DNA from: a virus
Lineage: Duplodnaviria > Heunggongvirae > Uroviricota > Caudoviricetes
Reading direction: 5' to 3' (one strand)
Virus record (IMG/VR): IMGVR_UViG_2651869694_000009
Coordinates: 1-27,070 of that record
DNA length: 27,070 nucleotides
This document shows positions 1 through 26,518 of the stretch, in pieces. Numbering within the stretch: position 1 is the stretch's first letter; each line of letters begins with the position of its first letter. A model generated the notes under the pieces. It was not told where the DNA came from. It did no database searches and saw nothing but the letters and a program-made list of their open reading frames with translations. A program made the position numbers and the translations under genes.

Positions 1-225
1 GCTAATCAGGCATATCACCAGATGGTGAAGCTGGGGATCGTTGAACAACGCGAACGATACAGCCGTACCGCGATTAACAACATCAAAAAATTCTGGTCAC
101 TGACAGCGAAAGGCTGCATGTTCGGCAAGAACATCACCAGTCCCGCAAATCCGCGCGAGACGCAGCCGCATTTCTTCGAATCCCGATTCCCTGAGCTGTT
201 AAAGCTGCTCGATACCGTACATTGA
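1..225 (+). CDS. 3' end of an upstream gene truncated by the window edge (listed ORF 22-225 is open back to base 1); function unknown, presumably a nin-region-like gene
   Basis: Frame 1 has no stop from base 1 to the TGA at 223-225. No motif recognised. Confidence 0.35.
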   Translation, partial: ANQAYHQMVKLGIVEQRERYSRTAINNIKKFWSLTAKGCMFGKNITSPANPRETQPHFFESRFPELLKLLDTVH

Positions 226-226
226 G

Positions 227-1222
227 GTGACCGTGAGAGCACTACTGACCCCTGAAATTGCCCCGCGTATGGGGATCGTATTGTTCAGACCAGGTTCAGA
301 GCTGATGCCCCTGTTTATGCAGGGGCGTGTCCTGCTGGAGCCTGAGCCGGAACGTTATTCATCTTTCGCCAGTGGTGCCGTTCCGGCGGCATCACAACCG
401 CTGGCGGATGATCCTACCGTTCGGGCCGTGTTCCGCAATGAGGCAGTGATCCGTCGTGCTGGTGGCGTGGAATGTCTTGAAAGCTGGTTACTTCGTGAAA
501 AAGGCTGCCAGTGGCCTCATTCCGACTGGCACAGCGAGAACATGACCACAATGCGACACGCTCCGGGTGCAATCCGTCTGTGCTGGCACTGCGATAACCA
601 GCTGCGCGATCAGTTCACGGAACGGCTGGAATCAATGGCAACGGATAACTGTGCCCGCTGGGTGTTGTCTGTTGTGCGTCGGGATCTCGGTTTTGATGAC
701 AGTCACGTTGTGACAATGCCGGAACTGTGCTGGTGGCTGATTCGTAATGACCTGGCGGATGCCTTACCGGAAAGTGCAGCCCGTAAGGCACTGAGATTAC
801 CGAAGCCTGTTGTGCCGTCTGTCACCCGGGAAAGTGACCTTGTGCCTTCGGTTCCTGCCACCAGCATCATCCAGGATAAGGCGAAAAAGGTGCTGGCGCT
901 GAAAGTGGATCCGGAGTCGCCGGAGTCTTTTATGTTACGCCCAAAACGTCGCCGCTGGGTTAATGAAAAGTACACGCGCTGGGTTAAGACACAGCCGTGT
1001 GCATGTTGTGGAAAGCCCGCTGATGATCCCCACCACCTGATAGGTTACGGTCAGGGTGGAATGGGAACAAAAGCCCATGACCTTTTTGTGTTGCCTTTGT
1101 GCAGAAAGCATCACGACGAGCTGCATGCGGATACCGTGGTATTTGAAGAAAAGTATGGCTCTCAGTTGGAGCTGATATTTCGTTTTATCGATCGTGCGCT
1201 GGCAATTGGCGTGCTGGCCTGA
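227..1222 (+). CDS. DUF968-family phage protein (YdfU-like) with a C-terminal Cys/His cluster
   Basis: 331-aa ORF. The C-terminus reads CACCGKPADDPHHLIGYGQGGMGTKAHDLFVLPLCRKHHDELH, an HNH-like metal-binding motif. From memory it matches E. coli Qin-prophage YdfU along its length. Sits directly upstream of Q, as in Qin. The true start may be the GTG at 233 (MRALLTPEIA), which follows GAGGTGA at 224-230. Confidence 0.75.
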   Translation: MTVRALLTPEIAPRMGIVLFRPGSELMPLFMQGRVLLEPEPERYSSFASGAVPAASQPLADDPTVRAVFRNEAVIRRAGGVECLESWLLREKGCQWPHSDWHSENMTTMRHAPGAIRLCWHCDNQLRDQFTERLESMATDNCARWVLSVVRRDLGFDDSHVVTMPELCWWLIRNDLADALPESAARKALRLPKPVVPSVTRESDLVPSVPATSIIQDKAKKVLALKVDPESPESFMLRPKRRRWVNEKYTRWVKTQPCACCGKPADDPHHLIGYGQGGMGTKAHDLFVLPLCRKHHDELHADTVVFEEKYGSQLELIFRFIDRALAIGVLA

Positions 1223-1239
1223 TTTTGTGGAGAAAGTTG

Positions 1240-1617
1240 ATGCGTGATATTCAAATGGTTCTGGATCGTTGGGGAGCATGGGCGGCGAGTGATAGTTCAG
1301 GAGTAGACTATTCTCCTATAGCTGCTGGGTTTAAAGGGCTTCTTCCCTATACAAGCAAAACACGTCAGGCATGTTCAGATAGTGATGCATTAATTATTGA
1401 AGGTTGTCTTGCTCGTCTAAGGCAAAAAAGGCCGGACGAACATTCGCTTCTTGTTGCCCATTACCTATACGGTATCTCTAAAAGAAAGCTCGCCAAGGCT
1501 CGTAAAAAGGATGAGAAACTAATACGCATTGAGATACAGATGGCTGAGGGGTTTATTGATGGCTGCCTATCGATGCTGGAAATTAGTCTAGAGATGGACC
1601 CCGAAATTAAAGATTGA
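1240..1617 (+). CDS. Q: Late-gene antitermination protein Q (QuuD / phage-82 Q-like family)
   Basis: Translation MRDIQMVLDRWGAWAA...IAAGFKGL... closely resembles E. coli DLP12 QuuD as I remember it. The ATG at 1240 follows GGAGAAAG. The ORF track starts at an upstream TTG (1225). Confidence 0.85.
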   Translation: MRDIQMVLDRWGAWAASDSSGVDYSPIAAGFKGLLPYTSKTRQACSDSDALIIEGCLARLRQKRPDEHSLLVAHYLYGISKRKLAKARKKDEKLIRIEIQMAEGFIDGCLSMLEISLEMDPEIKD

Positions 1618-1622
1618 TTATT

Positions 1623-1648
1623 GAAGCCCGATTACTCGGGCTTTTGTT
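1623..1648 (+). terminator. Intrinsic terminator immediately after Q
   Basis: Hairpin AGCCCG (1625-1630) / CGGGCT (1637-1642) with a 6-nt loop, followed by TTTTGTT. It overlaps the stop codon of the convergent minus-strand gene. Confidence 0.6.
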
Positions 1649-2651
1649 CCACATCTCGAACATAGAGAATTACTGCTGACTTAATGTCACCATCGACGTG
1701 TTTTGCGTTAATGCTCAAATGTACAGGCTTTCTTTCCCACTCAGCTCGCTGCAATGCTTCTTTGTTTCCGGATTCATCAAGGAAAACATCCTGAACTACG
1801 CAGGTTAGACGTTGGTCGGTATCTACGCGTCGGACCTTAACTTTGAAACTCTCTGGGTCAGTATTATTGACTTCTTCAATTCGGTAAATACCATCAATCC
1901 TCATTTCTGATGAACGTCTACGAGCATTCGTAACCAACTCTTTCGCCATTTCAGAATCAATAGTAACGCCATCAATTTGAGCGTTATCTGAACGCACAAA
2001 GGATTTGACCATTTGGGTTTTAGCGTCATACGACATACGGTCCATGTTATCGAGAAGTGGTTTTTCCGCAATCATTTCTGAAATAACCCGCAGGCGTTTA
2101 GTTTCTTGCTCGCTCATGATCTGCATAGTCCGGAGATGTTCTTTCTCTCCATCCTTAGCAATTTCTGCAAGGCGAATATCTTTACGGTTGTCCAAGAACC
2201 GTTTAAATACTGTTACTCCGCCCCAGATGACTGCTGCGCCGAGAACAGTAAACATGATCTCAGTTGCGTTCATTTTACCAACAAGTTCCTGTGTGAGTTT
2301 GGTTAAAAAGCCATCAATGTTGATTTCTACTATTGAAGAACCCTGTTCTACCGTAACTTCTATTTCTAGGGCATCAAGTTCTTCTTTGGTCAGTTTGCGG
2401 ACGTCAGGGACACCGTACTTGGCAAGGGCATATGATTTGTTGATTTGAGCTTGCATTTCAACAAATCCCTTCATAACTGAAGGTGTTAGCGATCTGTTGA
2501 ATTTTTCACCGGTTAATCTGATGGTAAGGTTTGGCCATCCGTTGAAACTTAAACTGTCAGGTAAACCATAACCATCAAGATAGCTTTCAAGCAAATCGAA
2601 GGCTTGCTGCTCAGATTCAATGTCTACATGAATCTCATCAAACTTATCCAA
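1632..2651 (-). CDS. Hypothetical single-pass membrane protein (339 aa), moron gene; candidate superinfection-exclusion or abortive-infection protein
   Basis: Long ORF in AT-rich DNA (about 33% G+C in the 60-nt lines I hand-counted). One hydrophobic segment IMFTVLGAAVIWGGVTVF at about residues 131-149, followed by KRFLDNRKDIR. The start is TTG at 2651-2649, preceded by GAGGA with a 7-nt spacer. Opposite orientation to the phage backbone. Confidence 0.7.
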   Translation of the reverse strand: MDKFDEIHVDIESEQQAFDLLESYLDGYGLPDSLSFNGWPNLTIRLTGEKFNRSLTPSVMKGFVEMQAQINKSYALAKYGVPDVRKLTKEELDALEIEVTVEQGSSIVEINIDGFLTKLTQELVGKMNATEIMFTVLGAAVIWGGVTVFKRFLDNRKDIRLAEIAKDGEKEHLRTMQIMSEQETKRLRVISEMIAEKPLLDNMDRMSYDAKTQMVKSFVRSDNAQIDGVTIDSEMAKELVTNARRRSSEMRIDGIYRIEEVNNTDPESFKVKVRRVDTDQRLTCVVQDVFLDESGNKEALQRAEWERKPVHLSINAKHVDGDIKSAVILYVRDVEQKPE

Positions 2652-2825
2652 AAATATGTCCTCATTCTAAGCCAACTGTCACCGTGAGGTTTGGCAACGC
2701 CTGCTTTATTTTTCGTTTTAAGCTGTGTGGCAAAAAAATAATGGAAAAACAGATAAAAATCACTAACGCGGTCCGCATTTTCTAGATTACTGTGTTAAGA
2801 GTGGTTACTTCGCCACACAACTTAA

Positions 2826-2848
2826 ACCCGCCGCTGAGCGGTTTTTTT
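2826..2848 (+). terminator. Weak candidate intrinsic terminator or attenuator
   Basis: Short GC stem CCGC (2831-2834) / GCGG (2838-2841) with a 3-nt loop, then a run of seven T (2842-2848). The stem is short, so this is tentative. Confidence 0.35.
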
Positions 2849-2946
2849 GTACCTGTAAACTTGGTGCAGCACAGTAAACACGCTGGTGGTCGTGAATACT
2901 GACTTTTTATCTTGCTGGCTTTTTAGACAAGAGTTATTGGTATGTC

Positions 2947-3174
2947 ATGTTAACCAGAAGGGAAAAAGACATGCTAAAACAGCAAGATATGACAGAAACC
3001 GCCGCCGCAGTCCTTCATTTCTTACCTGCTGACAAGTGGGTAACGCCACGCATGATGACGAGAACTACCGGAGTAAGCGAAGCCCGGTGCCAGTTAATAC
3101 TGACTCAGTTAGTTCTGGCGGGTCTGGCGAAGGATAACGGCGGGTACGGGAATAAATTCAGACGCTGCCAGTAA
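2947..3174 (+). CDS. Small winged-helix DNA-binding protein (PapI/FaeA-like pattern), putative regulator
   Basis: 75-aa ORF; the real start may be an internal Met. The segment AVLHFLPADKWVTPRMMTRTTGVSEARCQLILTQLVLAGLAKDNGG has the helix-turn-helix plus wing pattern of PapI-type regulators. Assignment is by pattern only. Confidence 0.4.
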   Translation: MLTRREKDMLKQQDMTETAAAVLHFLPADKWVTPRMMTRTTGVSEARCQLILTQLVLAGLAKDNGGYGNKFRRCQ

Positions 3175-3324: not shown

Positions 3325-4377
3325 ATGAAAAATACTGTAAAAATAAACAGTGTTGATTTAATCAACGCTGATTGCCTGCATTTTATTCAGTCCCTGCCTG
3401 ATGATTCCATTGACCTGATTGTTACCGATCCGCCTTACTTCAAAGTGAAACCTAACGGTTGGGACAATCAGTGGAAAGGGGACGAAGATTACCTTAAGTG
3501 GCTGGACCACTGTCTGGCCCAGTTCTGGCGGGTGTTAAAACCTGCCGGAAGCCTTTACCTGTTCTGTGGGCATCGCCTGGCATCTGATATTGAGATCATG
3601 ATGCGTGAACGTTTCAACGTGCTTAACCATATCATCTGGGCGAAGCCGTCCGGACGTTGGAATGGGTGTAATAAAGAAAGTCTGCGCGCATATTTTCCTG
3701 CCACAGAGCGCGTTCTGTTTGCTGAACATTACCAGGGGCCATATCGCGGCAAAAGTGACGACTATGCGGCAAAAGAAAGGGAACTCAAACAGCACATAAT
3801 GGCACCGCTGATATCGTATTTCAGGGATGCTCGTGCCGAACTGGGTATAACGGCAAAACAAATTGCCGAAGCCACAGGTAAGAAAAATATGGTTTCCCAC
3901 TGGTTTGGTGCCAGTCAGTGGCAGTTGCCGAATGAGGCTGACTATCGGAAGTTACAGGCACTGTTTTCCCGTATAGCGGCAGAGAAGTTTCAGGAACAAC
4001 AACTGGAACAACCACACCACCAGCTGGTGGCATCTTATGATTCACTGAATCGCAAATATTCTGAATTGCTGGATGAGTTTAAATCTCTCCGGCGCTATTT
4101 CTCCGTATCAGTCTCCGTGCCTTATACCGATGTCTGGACGCATAAGCCCGTTCAGTTCTACCCGGGTAAACATCCGTGCGAGAAACCGGCGGATATGCTC
4201 CGGCAAATAATCAATGCCAGTAGTCGACCTGGTGATCTGGTTGCTGATTTCTTTATGGGATCCGGTTCCACAATAAAAGCAGCAATGGCGCTGGGGCGTC
4301 GGGCGTTAGGTGTTGAACTTGAGTCAGAGCGGTTTAATCAGACGGTGAAAGAGGTAAGTGAACTGGTGGGGAAATAA
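3325..4377 (+). CDS. Orphan DNA methyltransferase, beta-class (N6-adenine or N4-cytosine), PF01555-like
   Basis: Catalytic motif IV DPPY near the N-terminus (LIVTDPPYF) and AdoMet-binding motif I near the C-terminus (DFFMGSGST). That order defines beta-class amino-methyltransferases. No restriction endonuclease partner is visible. Confidence 0.85.
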   Translation: MKNTVKINSVDLINADCLHFIQSLPDDSIDLIVTDPPYFKVKPNGWDNQWKGDEDYLKWLDHCLAQFWRVLKPAGSLYLFCGHRLASDIEIMMRERFNVLNHIIWAKPSGRWNGCNKESLRAYFPATERVLFAEHYQGPYRGKSDDYAAKERELKQHIMAPLISYFRDARAELGITAKQIAEATGKKNMVSHWFGASQWQLPNEADYRKLQALFSRIAAEKFQEQQLEQPHHQLVASYDSLNRKYSELLDEFKSLRRYFSVSVSVPYTDVWTHKPVQFYPGKHPCEKPADMLRQIINASSRPGDLVADFFMGSGSTIKAAMALGRRALGVELESERFNQTVKEVSELVGK

Positions 4378-4453: not shown

Positions 4454-4780
4454 ATGCCTCATAACCCAAATACCTGGCTGGACTTGGTCCAGAGCTGGTG
4501 GCGTGGAGACACACCGCTGGGTGCAGTGATTATGTCGATCGTTATGGCTGGTTTGCGCATCGCCTATTTTGGCGGTGGTGGTGGCTGGAAGCGAAAAACG
4601 CTCGAGATTTTGCTATGTGGCGCTCTGACGCTGACCTTTGCATCCGCTCTTGAGTATGTCGGATGGCCTAAATCACTTTCTGTTGCCATTGGTGGTGGGG
4701 TGGGGCTGATCGGTGTCGATGCTATTCGTGGGGCTGCAATGCGAGTAATCGGTAACAAATTTGGTGGCTCTAAGGAGTAA
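4454..4780 (+). CDS. S: Holin (lambda S-like, class I)
   Basis: Immediately upstream of the endolysin. Hydrophobic segments (GAVIMSIVMAGL, ILLCGALTLTFASAL, VAIGGGVGLIGV) and a charged C-terminal tail. The C-terminal pattern IGGGVGLIGVDAIRGAAMRVIGNKF resembles lambda S. ATG at 4454 follows GAGGTGA. The longer ORF from 4358 runs through the terminator hairpin and is rejected. Confidence 0.7.
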   Translation: MPHNPNTWLDLVQSWWRGDTPLGAVIMSIVMAGLRIAYFGGGGGWKRKTLEILLCGALTLTFASALEYVGWPKSLSVAIGGGVGLIGVDAIRGAAMRVIGNKFGGSKE

Positions 4781-4783
4781 TTT

Positions 4784-5260
4784 ATGCAGGTACTAAATTC
4801 CCAGCGTAAAGCTTTCCTTGATATGGTGGCTTGGTCAGAAGGAACGGATAACGGACGACAACCGACACGTAACCACGGTTATGACGTTATTGTCGGTGGT
4901 GAACTCTTCACTGATTACTCCGATCACCCTCGCAAACTTGTCACGCTAAACCCGAAACTCAAGTCAACAGCCGCCGGACGTTACCAGCTTCTTTCACGCT
5001 GGTGGGATGCTTACCGTAAACAGCTTGGCCTGAAAGATTTTTCTCCAGAAAGCCAGGACGCTGTAGCTCTGCAGCAGATTAAAGAGCGTGGCGCTTTACC
5101 GATGATTGACCGTGGCAATATTCGTCAGGCAATCGACCGTTGCAGCAATATCTGGGCGTCATTACCTGGTGCAGGTTACGGTCAGTATGAACATAAAATC
5201 GGTGACCTGATTGCACGGTTTGAAGAGGCTGGTGGGGTGATAAATGAAGTTGAGCTATAA
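4784..5260 (+). CDS. R: Endolysin, lytic transglycosylase (lambda R family)
   Basis: 158 aa. The translation MQVLNSQRKAFLDMVAWSEGTDNGRQPTRNHGYDVIVGGELFTDYSDHPRKLVTLNPKLKST... is nearly identical to lambda R as I remember it. Confidence 0.93.
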   Translation: MQVLNSQRKAFLDMVAWSEGTDNGRQPTRNHGYDVIVGGELFTDYSDHPRKLVTLNPKLKSTAAGRYQLLSRWWDAYRKQLGLKDFSPESQDAVALQQIKERGALPMIDRGNIRQAIDRCSNIWASLPGAGYGQYEHKIGDLIARFEEAGGVINEVEL

Positions 5261-5636
5261 GCTGGTTATCGCTGCTTTCTTCGTTACTGTCATTGGTTCT
5301 TTCATCTGGTCAGCCAACCACTACTACAGCAAATATCAGTACGAAAAGAAACGTGCTGATGAGGCTGAACGAAATGCTGGATCAGCAACAGCCATTACCA
5401 ATAACGTCCTGCAATCACTGCAAATCGTCAATACAGTACTGGAGGCTAACCAGCATGCAAAACAGCAGATCGCACTGGAGTCACAGAGAACCCAGGAAGA
5501 TATCAAAATGGCTGTTGCGGATGATGATTGTGCTTCACGTGCTGTGCCTGCTGCCGCTGCTGACCGGTTGCGGAAGTACGCGGACAGTTTACGTGAGCGT
5601 TCCGGTGGCACCACTGCCACCCAGCCTGACTTCTGA
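5244..5636 (+). CDS. Rz: Spanin, inner-membrane subunit (Rz-like)
   Basis: Directly after R. N-terminal membrane anchor LVIAAFFVTVIGSFIW followed by a charged, probably coiled-coil periplasmic region. Confidence 0.8.
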   Translation: MKLSYKLVIAAFFVTVIGSFIWSANHYYSKYQYEKKRADEAERNAGSATAITNNVLQSLQIVNTVLEANQHAKQQIALESQRTQEDIKMAVADDDCASRAVPAAAADRLRKYADSLRERSGGTTATQPDF

Positions 5637-5778
5637 TACTCCTGTACCGTTTATACCTAATCCGCTGACGTATGGTGCCAGTCTGGAGCTGAATGTGAGT
5701 CTGTTGTCTGCGCTGGCTAACTGCAATCGGGATAAAGCTGATATTCGTAAAATAGATGCAGAGAGAACTAACCATTAA
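5521..5778 (+). CDS. Rz1: Spanin, outer-membrane lipoprotein subunit (Rz1-like), overlapped arrangement
   Basis: In the +1 frame inside Rz. Tandem ATG at 5521/5524. Lipoprotein signal MMIVLHVLCLLPLLTGC with lipobox L-T-G-C and a Pro-rich mature part. Extends past the Rz stop. Confidence 0.75.
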   Translation: MMIVLHVLCLLPLLTGCGSTRTVYVSVPVAPLPPSLTSDTPVPFIPNPLTYGASLELNVSLLSALANCNRDKADIRKIDAERTNH

Positions 5779-5799
5779 GCAATAAAATTGTCAAATTAA

Positions 5800-6426
5800 T
5801 CAGTTGTCAAATGAATATACGTTAAAGGTATATGTCGACATAATTTCACCAAGTACCTCAATACATACACTTTTTTTATGAAAATTACTGGGAAATGAAC
5901 TTAGCTCCTCAAGACATTGCACATAAGTGCTGATATCACTTGCATCACGTTCAAGGAATTTCACTTGACCAAAAGAAGGAGTTTTAATCTTGGTTCTTTG
6001 CTGGATTATATGGATAAAGTGTGTAGTTGGTGAAACTATTACTCTTGAAATATCGGAAATGATGTCTTCTTGAACTTGCCGATAAAGTAAATCCTTTGGG
6101 TAATGGTGTTTTATCTCGATGGTTGCAACATTGCCATTATGTTCAGACGTTAATATCGACTGGTTATAAAGTGATATGTCAACAGCGCCGATACCGAGTT
6201 TTGGATGCTCACTTAAAGCAGTTAGTGTGCTGATTTGATTGAGTATAACAACTAACTCATCACGTATTTGTGTTTCATGTTTGCGATTGTAGAAGTAGCC
6301 ATTCAGTTCATTTAACTTTTTATGCATCCTATCGTGACTAATTGCTTCGATCAGTAAATCCTGAATCATACTTTTCTCTAGGTAATCCGAACGGTTGTAA
6401 GTGACAGTATTGTGCTGGCATGTCAT
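5800..6426 (-). CDS. Hypothetical protein (208 aa), downstream gene of an AT-rich moron operon; possible PD-(D/E)xK-type nuclease
   Basis: Long ORF in DNA of about 32-37% G+C, where stop codons are frequent and long chance ORFs are unlikely. Contains GIGAVDISLY ... VATIEIKHH (D83, E104, K106), compatible with a PD-(D/E)xK core. Start uncertain because no clear SD precedes ATG 6426. Confidence 0.6.
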   Translation of the reverse strand: MTCQHNTVTYNRSDYLEKSMIQDLLIEAISHDRMHKKLNELNGYFYNRKHETQIRDELVVILNQISTLTALSEHPKLGIGAVDISLYNQSILTSEHNGNVATIEIKHHYPKDLLYRQVQEDIISDISRVIVSPTTHFIHIIQQRTKIKTPSFGQVKFLERDASDISTYVQCLEELSSFPSNFHKKSVCIEVLGEIMSTYTFNVYSFDN

Positions 6427-6469
6427 TAATATGTAAAGGTATTGTGAATGCCAGAAAGATAACGAAGTA

Positions 6470-6805
6470 TCATCGATAGAAAAACTTTACAGCCCACTCG
6501 TAAACAGCTTTGTAAATCGGTTCATGGTAAATACTATCGATACTATTCAGATGTGCGATCATCGCCTCCACAGTTGTAGTGGTTGTTTCTAATATTTCGA
6601 TTATTGCAGGGCGGTCATCATCTTCATCGAAGTATTCGAACAGCAGTACAGGTTTACCATGCAATTCAGCATCTGAGACTCTAAGGTTACAACTACCGCT
6701 CAACTCAAAGTGAATTTTGTAATTACCTTCTACAGAATGGCCTACGGGGAAAAAGTATAGGGTGTCATCTTTGTTCAAAAGCCATTCCCATTCATAACTA
6801 TTCAT
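6470..6805 (-). CDS. Hypothetical small acidic protein (about 111 aa), upstream gene of the AT-rich moron operon
   Basis: ORF on the same strand, 43 bp upstream of the 208-aa gene. The preferred start is the second ATG (6805), preceded by AGGAG with a 7-nt spacer; the ORF track starts at 6823. Acidic patch FEYFDEDDDRP and a TTTT run. Confidence 0.6.
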   Translation of the reverse strand: MNSYEWEWLLNKDDTLYFFPVGHSVEGNYKIHFELSGSCNLRVSDAELHGKPVLLFEYFDEDDDRPAIIEILETTTTTVEAMIAHLNSIDSIYHEPIYKAVYEWAVKFFYR

Positions 6806-6955
6806 TTGTGAACTCCTGTTCATTGAGTTTCAACAACTATCAACTACATCCAGCGAAGCATAAAAGATCGTTTATGGCAAAACCGGAATGGAGTGCGATT
6901 CGATTCTGAGAAGGGTGCCACGTATCGTACGCGAACCATCCAAGAGGATTATGCA

Positions 6956-24281: not shown

Positions 24282-25064
24282 ATGCATCGTATAGACACGA
24301 AAACCGCGCAGAAGGATAAGTTCGGCGCGGGTAAGAACGGTTTTACCCGTGGTAACCCCCAGACCGGCACACCTGCCACCGATCTGGATGATGACTACTT
24401 TGACATGTTGCAGGAAGAACTCTGCAGCGTGGTGGAGGCATCCGGTGCCAGCCTGGAGAAGGGGCGGCATGACCAGCTGCTTACCGCGCTTCGTGCGCTG
24501 CTGTTAAGCCGCAAGAATCCGTTTGGCGATATCAAATCGGATGGCACGGTGAAAAGGGCTCTCGAAAACCTTGGTTTGGGAGAAGGTTCGGCATTACCCG
24601 TTGGTGTGCCTGTTCCGTGGCCTTCCGCCACTCCGCCAACAGGCTGGCTGAAATGCAACGGTGCCGCTTTTTCTGCTGAAGAATACCCGGAACTGGCAAA
24701 GGCTTATCCGACAAATAAATTGCCTGATTTACGTGGTGAGTTTATTCGTGGCTGGGATGACGGGCGTGGAGTGGATAACGGAAGGGGATTATTAACGCTT
24801 CAGGACGGTGCGATTGTCAGTCATAACCACTATTGGGGAATCTGGACTTCACGAACTAACGACCAGACTCTGGAAAGTTTTACAGGCACCACGATTTTAA
24901 AACAAATCACGCCCCTGTCTCCAGCCATTGACTTCGATAATTACCCAATTCCCAACCCGGCTATTACAGAGGGTGGTGTTGTTGCGGCAACGACTAAACC
25001 TGCAGGTGCGAATGAAACACGCCCACGAAATGTCGCTTTTAACTATATTGTGAGGGCTGCATAA
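24282..25064 (+). CDS. Tail fibre protein: constant N-terminal part fused to the variable C-terminal domain in the current orientation
   Basis: 260 aa. Conserved fibre N-terminus (MHRIDTKTA...[17 protein letters not shown]) and fibre-type C-terminal ending [11 protein letters not shown]. Contains the left crossover site at 24559-24584. Confidence 0.85.
24559..24584. repeat. Left crossover site of the invertible segment (pix/gix/hix-type, 12-2-12 bp)
   Basis: CTCTCGAAAACC TT GGTTTGGGAGAA. Positions 24571-24584 are a perfect inverted repeat of 26439-26452. The half-sites resemble Hin/Gin recombination sites. Confidence 0.75.
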
Positions 25065-25666
25065 TGAATAACGCAGAATTAAACAGTGAATTAATTGCCA
25101 CTATGGCAGGAGAAATTACTGTTTATAACTTTGACGTCATGAGTCGGGAGTATATTTCAGCTTCAACTGAATATCTTGCTGTTGGTGTCGGCATTCCGGC
25201 ATATTCCTGTTTAGATGCTCCAGGCACCTACAAAGCTGGTTATGCAATCTGCCGCTCTGCAGATTTTAACTCATGGGAATATGTACCAGACCATCGCGGT
25301 GAAATCGTCTATAACACCGAAACGGGAGACGCCAAAGAAATCACAACTCCGGGTGATTACCCCGAAAAAACAACCACTATCGCCCCGTTAACGCCATACG
25401 ATAAATGGGATGGTGAGAAATGGGTAACGGATACTGAGACACAGCATAGCGCCGCAGTAGACGCGGCAGAAGCACAGCGTCAGTCACTGATTGATACTGC
25501 AATGGCTTCCATCAGTCTGATTCAACTGAAATTGCAGGCCGGGCGGAAGCTGACGCAGGCAGAAACCACCCGACTTAACGCTGTGCTGGATTACATTGAC
25601 GCGGTGACGGCAACAGATACCAGCACCGCGCCGGATGTCATCTGGCCTGAACTGCCGGAGGCGTAG
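25064..25666 (+). CDS. Tail fibre assembly protein (Tfa, current-orientation partner)
   Basis: 200 aa. Its C-terminus (LDYIDAVTATDTSTAPDVIWPELPEA) resembles the conserved end of the convergent minus-strand paralogue. Confidence 0.8.
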   Translation: MNNAELNSELIATMAGEITVYNFDVMSREYISASTEYLAVGVGIPAYSCLDAPGTYKAGYAICRSADFNSWEYVPDHRGEIVYNTETGDAKEITTPGDYPEKTTTIAPLTPYDKWDGEKWVTDTETQHSAAVDAAEAQRQSLIDTAMASISLIQLKLQAGRKLTQAETTRLNAVLDYIDAVTATDTSTAPDVIWPELPEA

Positions 25667-26078
25667 GCCATTCAATATCTGGCGCACCGGAAGTATCGAC
25701 CAGTTCCAGTGCGTCCAGGTAATCCAGCCACAAATTATATTGCGCCAGTTCGTCACCTTTCAGACGACCAATAGCCGCTTTACCAGGCCATTGTTTACTG
25801 TTCATATAAACGTTGGCCTGATTAATCAATTGCTGCTTCTCCAATTCGGCTGCAGCAATTTGTTCCTCATGTGTTGGTGGTGGAATTTCGGACCATGCAG
25901 GAAAACCATTTTCTCCAGCGATACGGATTTTTCCTTTCGGCGGTAATCCGGAAAACTCAATATACACTTGCTCATCAACTTCAACAGCATCATCTGGCCA
26001 TGAGTCAGCTTGAGTGTAATCCTCTTTCATCTCCAGCGGATAGAAAGAGTTTGTAGTCGCGGAATATATGTAATTCAT
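25638..26078 (-). CDS. Alternative tail fibre assembly protein (partner of the alternative fibre C-terminus)
   Basis: 146 aa, convergent with the + strand Tfa. C-terminus LWLDYLDALELVDTSGAPDIEWPTPPA matches the Tfa family pattern. Confidence 0.8.
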   Translation of the reverse strand: MNYIYSATTNSFYPLEMKEDYTQADSWPDDAVEVDEQVYIEFSGLPPKGKIRIAGENGFPAWSEIPPPTHEEQIAAAELEKQQLINQANVYMNSKQWPGKAAIGRLKGDELAQYNLWLDYLDALELVDTSGAPDIEWPTPPAVQAR

Positions 26079-26099
26079 TTTTCACTCCATATAGCTAAA

Positions 26100-26447
26100 T
26101 TAACAGCCTAACGCTAAAAATGAAGCGCCGAGGCCAGGAGTACTGGCTCTGGATATAAATTTAACCGGGTCGGGACTAAAACCTGCACAGGCAATATAAC
26201 CAACAGCCCCGCTATCTGGTGTGTAGTCTTGTGAGACCAAAACACGCAGACATCTGTTTGGAAATGCAATCGGGAAATGGGTTACTACATCCTGTGCAAT
26301 GCCTGGTGCGCCGATTGAGCCCCACTGAAGAATAAAACCTGATGGTAATTTTTGATATCCAGTACCTGAAACAGAAAGCGTGAAGCTACCCATATCAGGT
26401 ATCTGATTCGCCCCTGTCCCTACATTCCTTTTAGCCGCTTCTCCCAA
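26100..26447 (-). CDS. Alternative tail fibre C-terminal domain, silent in the current orientation
   Basis: Open frame with no start codon of its own; the listed M is TTG coding Leu. Its first codons lie in the right crossover site and encode LGE, the same junction residues as the left site in the fibre gene. Confidence 0.7.
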
Positions 26448-26464
26448 ACCAACCTTTTAGAAAA
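26439..26464. repeat. Right crossover site of the invertible segment
   Basis: TTCTCCCAAACC AA CCTTTTAGAAAA, about 55 bp upstream of the invertase gene. Confidence 0.75.
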
Positions 26465-26518
26465 TGCAGTTATTCGGCTCAGATGGCATGATCCCGGATT
26501 TTTACAGGGTTATTTCTC

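Follow-up and report, generated by a model that had tools for sequence, protein, structure and literature searches.

A putative solitary PD-(D/E)xK endonuclease carried as a cargo gene by a lambdoid prophage of Escherichia coli

Does the D...ExK signature in the product of a small, unannotated prophage gene denote a genuine nuclease, and if so, what would such an enzyme do for the element that carries it? The gene in question lies in a stretch of 27,070 nucleotides from a virus of the Caudoviricetes (IMG/VR record IMGVR_UViG_2651869694_000009, positions 1 to 27,070; hereafter the window), which belongs to a lambdoid prophage of E. coli whose packaging module is of the HK97/P27 type. A 208-codon open reading frame (ORF) occupies positions 5800-6426 of its minus strand. 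A preliminary description, made from the letters of the sequence, had pointed to the peptides GIGAVDISLY (from residue 78) and VATIEIKHH (from residue 100) in the translation, and had read D83, E104 and K106 as a possible restriction-endonuclease-like catalytic core. The ORF, both peptides, the residue numbering and a small acidic neighbor with the stretch FEYFDEDDDRP are all as described there. Our analysis indicates that the gene product is very probably a small enzyme that cuts DNA and has a restriction endonuclease fold, and that it is probably used against rival phages; we put the probability that it is a solitary defense endonuclease of the PD-(D/E)xK superfamily, borne as standalone prophage cargo, at roughly 60%. 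The features of the gene are as follows, with residues numbered in the 189-aa form, in which the above D83, E104 and K106 become D64, E85 and K87:

5800-6369, minus strand: coding sequence of the 189-aa PD-(D/E)xK-like protein (RefSeq WP_000613842, PHROG 12494), with the stop codon at 5800-5802 and the probable start ATG at 6367-6369 (M20 of the longer ORF)
6370-6426, minus strand: 19-codon 5' extension of the ORF, probably untranslated, not conserved in homologs and without a Shine-Dalgarno sequence
6274-6282, minus strand: codons of K30 (6280-6282) and E32 (6274-6276) in an N-x-K-x-E motif at the start of core helix α1, both invariant in 129 of 129 homologs
6178-6180, minus strand: codon of D64, one residue before strand β2, invariant in 129 of 129 homologs and aligned to EcoRV D74
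6109-6117, minus strand: codons of E85-I86-K87 in strand β3, with E and K invariant in 129 of 129 homologs and aligned to EcoRV D90-I-K92
6409-6437, minus strand: promoter-like site (TTTACA, 17-nt spacer, CACAAT) between the stop codon of the neighboring 111-aa gene and the M20 start, matching the consensus at 9 of 12 positions in a scan

The length of 208 aa given in the preliminary description is probably an overestimate, as translation most likely starts at M20 (coordinate 6369) with the ORF being over-called at its 5' end. This is because all homologs begin with MIQ..., which corresponds to M20, the PHROG 12494 profile (189 positions) matches residues 20-208 of the ORF, the RefSeq annotation of the gene is 189 aa long, and the purine-rich stretch TAGAGAAAAG precedes M20. 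The alternative M1 (ATG at 6424-6426) is not preceded by a Shine-Dalgarno sequence and falls inside the spacer of the promoter-like site.

By itself the motif is uninformative, since 57% of shuffles of the protein contain a bare D-x(10-30)-[DE]-x-K pattern, as do 20 of the 51 window ORFs that are 100 aa or longer. A version embedded in hydrophobic strands is found in just 0.3% of the shuffles and, among the ORFs of the window, in this one only. The real significance of the motif comes from conservation and structure. A word-indexed search recovered a narrow clade restricted to Enterobacterales (48-98% identity, all unannotated), in which 57 alignment columns are invariant, the three motif residues included; invariance within so close a clade is weak evidence if taken alone. 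Distant members came to light when 1.8 billion representative proteins were searched in full with a HMMER profile; a further round of profile searching yielded about 80 more sequences, most of them ~190-230 aa long and originating from Bacteroidota, Acinetobacter and metagenomes. In an alignment of 39 sequences with identities down to ~20%, no columns other than K30, E32, D64, E85 and K87 are invariant, and exactly these five are 100% invariant across 129 full-length homologs (median identity to the query 24%, lowest ~17-20%), with E54 and P56 being the next most conserved at 99%. Thus, of the 57 columns without variation in the close clade, five remain so in the wide family, with all three motif residues among them; by our own arithmetic, C(54,2)/C(57,5), the probability of this happening by chance is ~3e-4. 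The residues singled out in the preliminary description are accordingly upheld by the homologs, and the motif is the functional core of the protein.

An AlphaFold2 model built from a 20-sequence alignment (mean predicted local distance difference test score, pLDDT, 86.7; predicted template modeling score, pTM, 0.87) shows a single domain. Its elements are, in order, a helix (residues 31-46), three strands (50-53, 65-68 and 80-89), a second helix (97-108) and a fourth strand (117-127), followed by a further helix and a C-terminal β-hairpin (163-187). The predicted core therefore has the α-β-β-β-α-β arrangement, with a mixed sheet, expected of the PD-(D/E)xK fold, and the conserved residues occupy the canonical positions: the second strand begins one residue after D64, the third contains E85-x-K87, and E32 is at the start of the core helix. 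The best structural matches of the predicted fold are restriction endonucleases of type IIP. In a profile alignment with EcoRV, for which we used a sequence identical to PDB 1eo3_A, hhalign finds exactly the catalytic register, with D64 opposite D74, E85 opposite D90 and K87 opposite K92; it also pairs E54-x-P56-K57 with E64-E65-P66-K67. Only 2 of 400 shuffled EcoRV sequences attain the score of this alignment. The corresponding catalytic residues of SwaI are D76, D93 and K95 (PMC5415892). On the combined strength of the invariant residues, the predicted topology and the sequence links to known nucleases, we consider it highly probable that the protein belongs to the PD-(D/E)xK superfamily.

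Within this superfamily the protein resembles the EcoRV/SwaI branch most, yet it forms a separate family of its own. Identity to the type IIP enzymes EcoRV, SwaI and HincII is ~13%, with no significant sequence match to solved structures, and profile searches of PDB sequences with both the close and the wide family alignments likewise gave no meaningful match. Unlike these enzymes, the family has no linked methyltransferase and displays the additional invariant N-x-K-x-E motif; the protein is also shorter, at 189 aa, and lacks the C-terminal swapped helix of SwaI. Among curated sequence families the nearest are HSDR_N and PDDEXK_4, which Pfam names or describes as restriction or PD-(D/E)xK enzymes. 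When the members were scanned one by one against Pfam, the sub-threshold matches concentrated on families named as nucleases or restriction enzymes: HSDR_N (PF04313) with residues 9-93 of member P0046 (E 1.4e-4, 22.2 bits against a gathering cutoff of 25.1) and also with a second member (P0050), PDDEXK_4 (PF14281) with residues 47-141 of P0084 (E 1.2e-3, 19.3 bits against a cutoff of 22.3) and also with P0079, and further PDDEXK_9, DpnII-MboI and Tox-REase-7. Where checked member by member, that is for all of these except Tox-REase-7, the match covers the motif region. The window protein itself matches neither HSDR_N nor PDDEXK_4, and the family lacks the kind of helicase/ATPase context that is seen in the R subunits of type I systems. 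It is unnamed: literature searches for both RefSeq accessions and both PHROG identifiers of the locus (those of this gene and of its acidic neighbor) found nothing, no searchable paper or curated family describes it, and PHROG 12494 is labeled 'hypothetical protein' throughout.

Members of the family are present in ~1.5% of complete E. coli genomes and are fairly common in Enterobacterales prophages, with a single protein cluster (90% identity), which takes its name from Enterobacter hormaechei, being seen on 246 contigs; the distant relatives come from Bacteroidota and Acinetobacter. Members of ~310 aa, with named examples from Acinetobacter (P0085 and six others; the gene at 5001-5936 of locus L015), have a C-terminal extension, which in most of them matches the Pfam domain DUF6508 (PF20118). 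This domain may hold a clue to the substrate or regulation of the family.

If the gene encodes a nuclease, its genomic setting bears on what the nuclease is for. The 1.2 kb segment that we queried (window 5700-6900) is 100% identical to a prophage of strain UPEC_U013, and a search of the phage GenBank collection with the cassette of the two minus-strand genes returned no near match. The surroundings of the gene are:

3325-4377, plus strand: DNA methyltransferase of 350 aa, upstream of the holin gene
between the methyltransferase and lysozyme genes: holin gene
4784-5260, plus strand: lysozyme
ending at 5778, plus strand: Rz and Rz1
5800-6426 and 6470-6805 (or 6823), minus strand: the two cargo genes, nuclease and acidic protein
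6470-6805, minus strand: acidic protein of 111 aa (WP_001089763, PHROG 14397), with AGGAG 7 nt before the ATG at 6805; the PHROG profile covers residues 7-117 of the ORF
6956-7306, plus strand: HNH endonuclease
7423-7926, plus strand: small terminase
from 7923, plus strand: large terminase
5500-7000: low-G+C cargo island (composition profile; G+C 0.37-0.43 against ~0.55 in the phage backbone), covering the interval that separates the Rz1 stop (5778) from the HNH gene

The G+C trough over both minus-strand genes is typical of acquired cargo genes ('morons'). Moreover, the content of the slot between Rz1 and the HNH gene varies among closely related E. coli prophages that share the lysis and packaging genes: it is empty in ETEC1730, in strain ST540 the lipoprotein gene iss occupies it on the minus strand, against the late operon, and in strain 0-4 the plus strand bears two other small hypothetical genes there. 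At the same position phage lambda has bor, which is related to iss and is likewise a lysogenic-conversion gene. Iss, annotated as a serum-survival lipoprotein, and Bor are unrelated to the nuclease as proteins; what they share with it is the position directly after the lysis genes in this variable slot. The nuclease gene is hence a self-contained, horizontally acquired cargo gene, situated in a slot of variable content that separates the lysis cassette of lambdoid prophages from their packaging genes.

Contextual associations suggest what the cargo may be for. In Proteus prophages the genes for the Lamassu proteins LmuA and LmuB (E 1e-148 and 9e-237) are in the slot, directly beside the nuclease homolog; as this complete defense system shares the slot, the latter appears to act as a hotspot for defense cargo in lambdoid prophages. 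Among the distant members, a chromosomal one from Tamlana lies between Kiwa (KwaA and KwaB) on the one side and type I HsdM/HsdS with a Fic protein on the other. Another distant chromosomal member directly follows AbiH and is near a C5-methylase/HATPase gene set and radical-SAM/HxsD genes, still others are close to genes for WYL regulators and for PDDEXK_4, cREC and YAcAr proteins, and one is found 1.6 kb upstream of a HEPN AbiU2 gene. Such defense-rich neighborhoods amount to guilt by association, yet they are consistent across phyla. The complete Lamassu pair in the lysis/packaging slot was observed at 118-3018 of locus L011 and in three further loci.

Taken together, these observations allow us to propose the following scheme. 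The product of the gene at 5800-6369 on the minus strand would be a DNA endonuclease of the PD-(D/E)xK fold that is 189 aa long, consists of a single domain, depends on metal and is nearest to the EcoRV/SwaI branch. From the example of SwaI and EcoRV, D64 and E85 are predicted to bind the catalytic Mg2+, and K87 to position the attacking water, serving as a general base or an electrostatic catalyst, with E32 on helix α1 and E54 probably completing the acidic pocket. In the lysogen the gene is probably expressed from its own promoter, with the promoter-like site at 6437-6409 as the candidate, and the enzyme would then most likely cut incoming phage or other foreign DNA and so protect the lysogen. 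It would need neither the 111-aa acidic protein nor the methyltransferase of the prophage for this. Sparing of self could conceivably be achieved by specificity for modified DNA, as in type IV enzymes, by blockage through host-wide methylation (Dam, Dcm), or by activation only during infection. With regard to the first of these, the gene stands alone in many prophages, as would a type IV nuclease that has no methyltransferase; a Pfam scan of the window protein for a modified-base reader recovered no domain of any kind.

There are precedents for single nuclease genes borne as prophage cargo. McrA of prophage e14 is a solitary restriction nuclease of the HNH type that spares its own host through the modification state of the substrate. 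HepS of Gifsy-1 is an HEPN RNase that functions in prophage defense and is activated by a phage protein (PMC13043305). Both protect the lysogen without a methyltransferase partner, and HepS provides, in a different fold, a precedent for activation by infection. Neither is homologous to the window protein, whose own defensive role is putative. The prophage defense system Tai is, like HepS, not homologous to the family, and both serve as analogies only.

Several points weigh against the proposal of a solitary defense endonuclease. Firstly, Foldseek searches of PDB and BFVD with the model gave no match below E 0.02, with Alba, methyltransferases and DHFR in the top rows; the restriction-endonuclease-like fold anticipated in the preliminary description is thus borne out by the topology of the model, and not by significant structural matches in these databases. 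Secondly, scans of the nuclease and of the 111-aa protein against Pfam, NCBIfam and PADLOC gave nothing at or near threshold, and PADLOC-DB v2.0.0 offered no family of defense proteins for either, even at E values up to 10. Thirdly, the alignment of the family profile to EcoRV is statistically weak (hhalign score 22.1, P 0.012, probability 3.5%). Fourthly, the promoter-like site is a weak match to the consensus in a region that has fewer such sites than its own shuffles, and terminator prediction at the locus gave none. Finally, it is from location and neighbors that we argue for a role in defense, and a solitary sequence-specific nuclease with no methyltransferase should be toxic, so that an essential part of the mechanism is missing from our scheme.

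A bolder version of the proposal, which we offer tentatively, is that the family constitutes a previously unrecognized single-gene anti-phage defense, an EcoRV-like endonuclease with no dedicated methyltransferase or immunity protein. Under such a scenario self might be told from non-self through Dam/Dcm blockage, hypermodified phage DNA or a component of the infecting phage, any of which would be unusual for the fold. The system might then spread as a plug-in cassette through the slot between the lysis and terminase genes of lambdoid prophages. In any case, a concrete and testable function can now be assigned to the unannotated family PHROG 12494. If it is a defense nuclease, it adds a one-gene system to the known list and marks the post-lysis slot as a site where lambdoid prophages swap defense cargo. 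Nucleases of the PD-(D/E)xK fold are commonplace among prophage cargo, and the possible interest of this one lies in how a methyltransferase-less enzyme of the restriction type avoids killing its host. In all other respects it adds one more ordinary member to a superfamily that is very large and well understood, and it would gain importance if the family were indeed a single-gene defense with an unusual way of sparing the host.

Four other explanations have to be set against the solitary defense endonuclease. The one that survives best, though it is unlikely, holds that the nuclease serves the life cycle of the phage, either as a structure-specific or recombination nuclease or as a degrader of host DNA. 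A gene with such a function is hard to reconcile with transcription against the late operon, with its low G+C content and with its sporadic presence in E. coli genomes. Furthermore, an empty slot or one occupied by iss does not keep closely related prophages from functioning, the prophage already encodes RusA, and the distant members reside in chromosomal defense islands, not in phages. It is more improbable still that the resemblance to nucleases is superficial, the protein being a nucleic-acid-binding or other alpha/beta protein with a chance D...ExK pattern.

Equally far behind comes the idea, which extends the suggestion made in the preliminary description, that the 111-aa protein is an antitoxin, DNA mimic or inhibitor that restrains the nuclease, which would itself be a toxin or a regulated nuclease; we regard this as very improbable. 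It draws on the adjacency of the two genes on the same strand, on the acidity of the smaller product (pI 4.56, with 20 D/E against 8 K/R in the 111-aa form), in which the FEYxDEDDD stretch is conserved among homologs, and on the whole two-gene cassette being inherited jointly in 73 of the 80 E. coli genomes that carry either gene. However, as the cassettes are 95-100% identical, this co-inheritance is uninformative. Beyond the E. coli clade the 111-aa gene was never seen beside the nuclease: tblastn searches for it were negative next to the nuclease homologs in Enterobacter, Yersinia, Citrobacter, Proteus and Providencia prophages. Enterobacter prophages have an unrelated 75-aa gene upstream of the nuclease, and Yersinia has a 206-aa gene downstream instead. 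Often the nuclease is wholly alone. In one Citrobacter and six IMG/VR loci it has no neighbor on the same strand, its start being 37-42 nt from the start of a divergent small terminase gene, and in four further loci it stands by itself beside an HNH gene. Even within E. coli, two loci combine a 96%-identical nuclease with a divergent protein of 151 aa where the 111-aa gene would be; tblastn for the latter was again negative. Conversely, homologs of the 111-aa protein (65-77% identity) occur alone between the small terminase and lysis genes in four loci. Finally, a promoter-like site separates the two genes in the window.

Since each gene thus occurs without the other in other prophages, the 111-aa gene is no obligate partner, and the two are independent cargo genes stacked in one slot; the partnership envisaged in the preliminary description finds no support. 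Some distant members of the nuclease family also have a small gene upstream, which might seem to speak for a pair. A conserved small upstream partner was nevertheless rejected, as the upstream genes in Enterobacter, Tenuifilum, Empedobacter and Acinetobacter show no relationship either among themselves or to the 111-aa protein. A Pfam scan of the neighboring small genes in the other loci found nothing except an aspartyl-protease-like gene in locus L023. The AlphaFold model of the 111-aa protein is poor (pLDDT 62, pTM 0.53). The 111-aa protein (PHROG 14397) appears as a mobile cargo gene in its own right in enterobacterial prophages, with five loci as examples (the four just mentioned and L023). 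The upstream gene of Tenuifilum (4670-4951 of locus L013) specifies a 93-aa protein made of repeated 'KEREADLKVF'-like units, which is unrelated to the 111-aa protein.

That the nuclease provides the restriction activity of a type II restriction-modification system, with the 350-aa methyltransferase at 3325-4377 as its cognate partner, is very doubtful: type IIP enzymes do top the structural matches, this prophage has a DNA methyltransferase at a distance of 1.4 kb and the Citrobacter locus has one that is 82% identical to it, but the two genes are on opposite strands with the lysis cassette between them, the methyltransferase is missing from 14 of the ~22 E. coli-clade phage loci with enough flank, including two (L030 and L064) whose nuclease is 100% identical, and none was found within 6 kb of the nuclease in Enterobacter, Yersinia and most Proteus/Providencia loci, where for Enterobacter and Providencia this holds for any methyltransferase family in Pfam. 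Pairing with the nearby methyltransferase is thereby ruled out by co-occurrence. The methyltransferase is present in 8 of the ~22 loci, and as this is only about a third of otherwise very similar prophages, it is a separate variable module that is unlinked to the nuclease.

Two other parts of the window deviate in composition from the phage backbone. A gene at 1632-2651 on the minus strand, between the Q antiterminator and methyltransferase genes, encodes a hypothetical protein of 339 aa (WP_000357056) and coincides with a second low-G+C trough (0.40-0.43); it looks like a further cargo gene, and Pfam matches it only to a GpJ fibronectin-type domain, weakly and below threshold. Near the 3' end of the window, in the region of the tail genes, positions 24500-26500 form a third stretch with reduced G+C (0.45-0.50).
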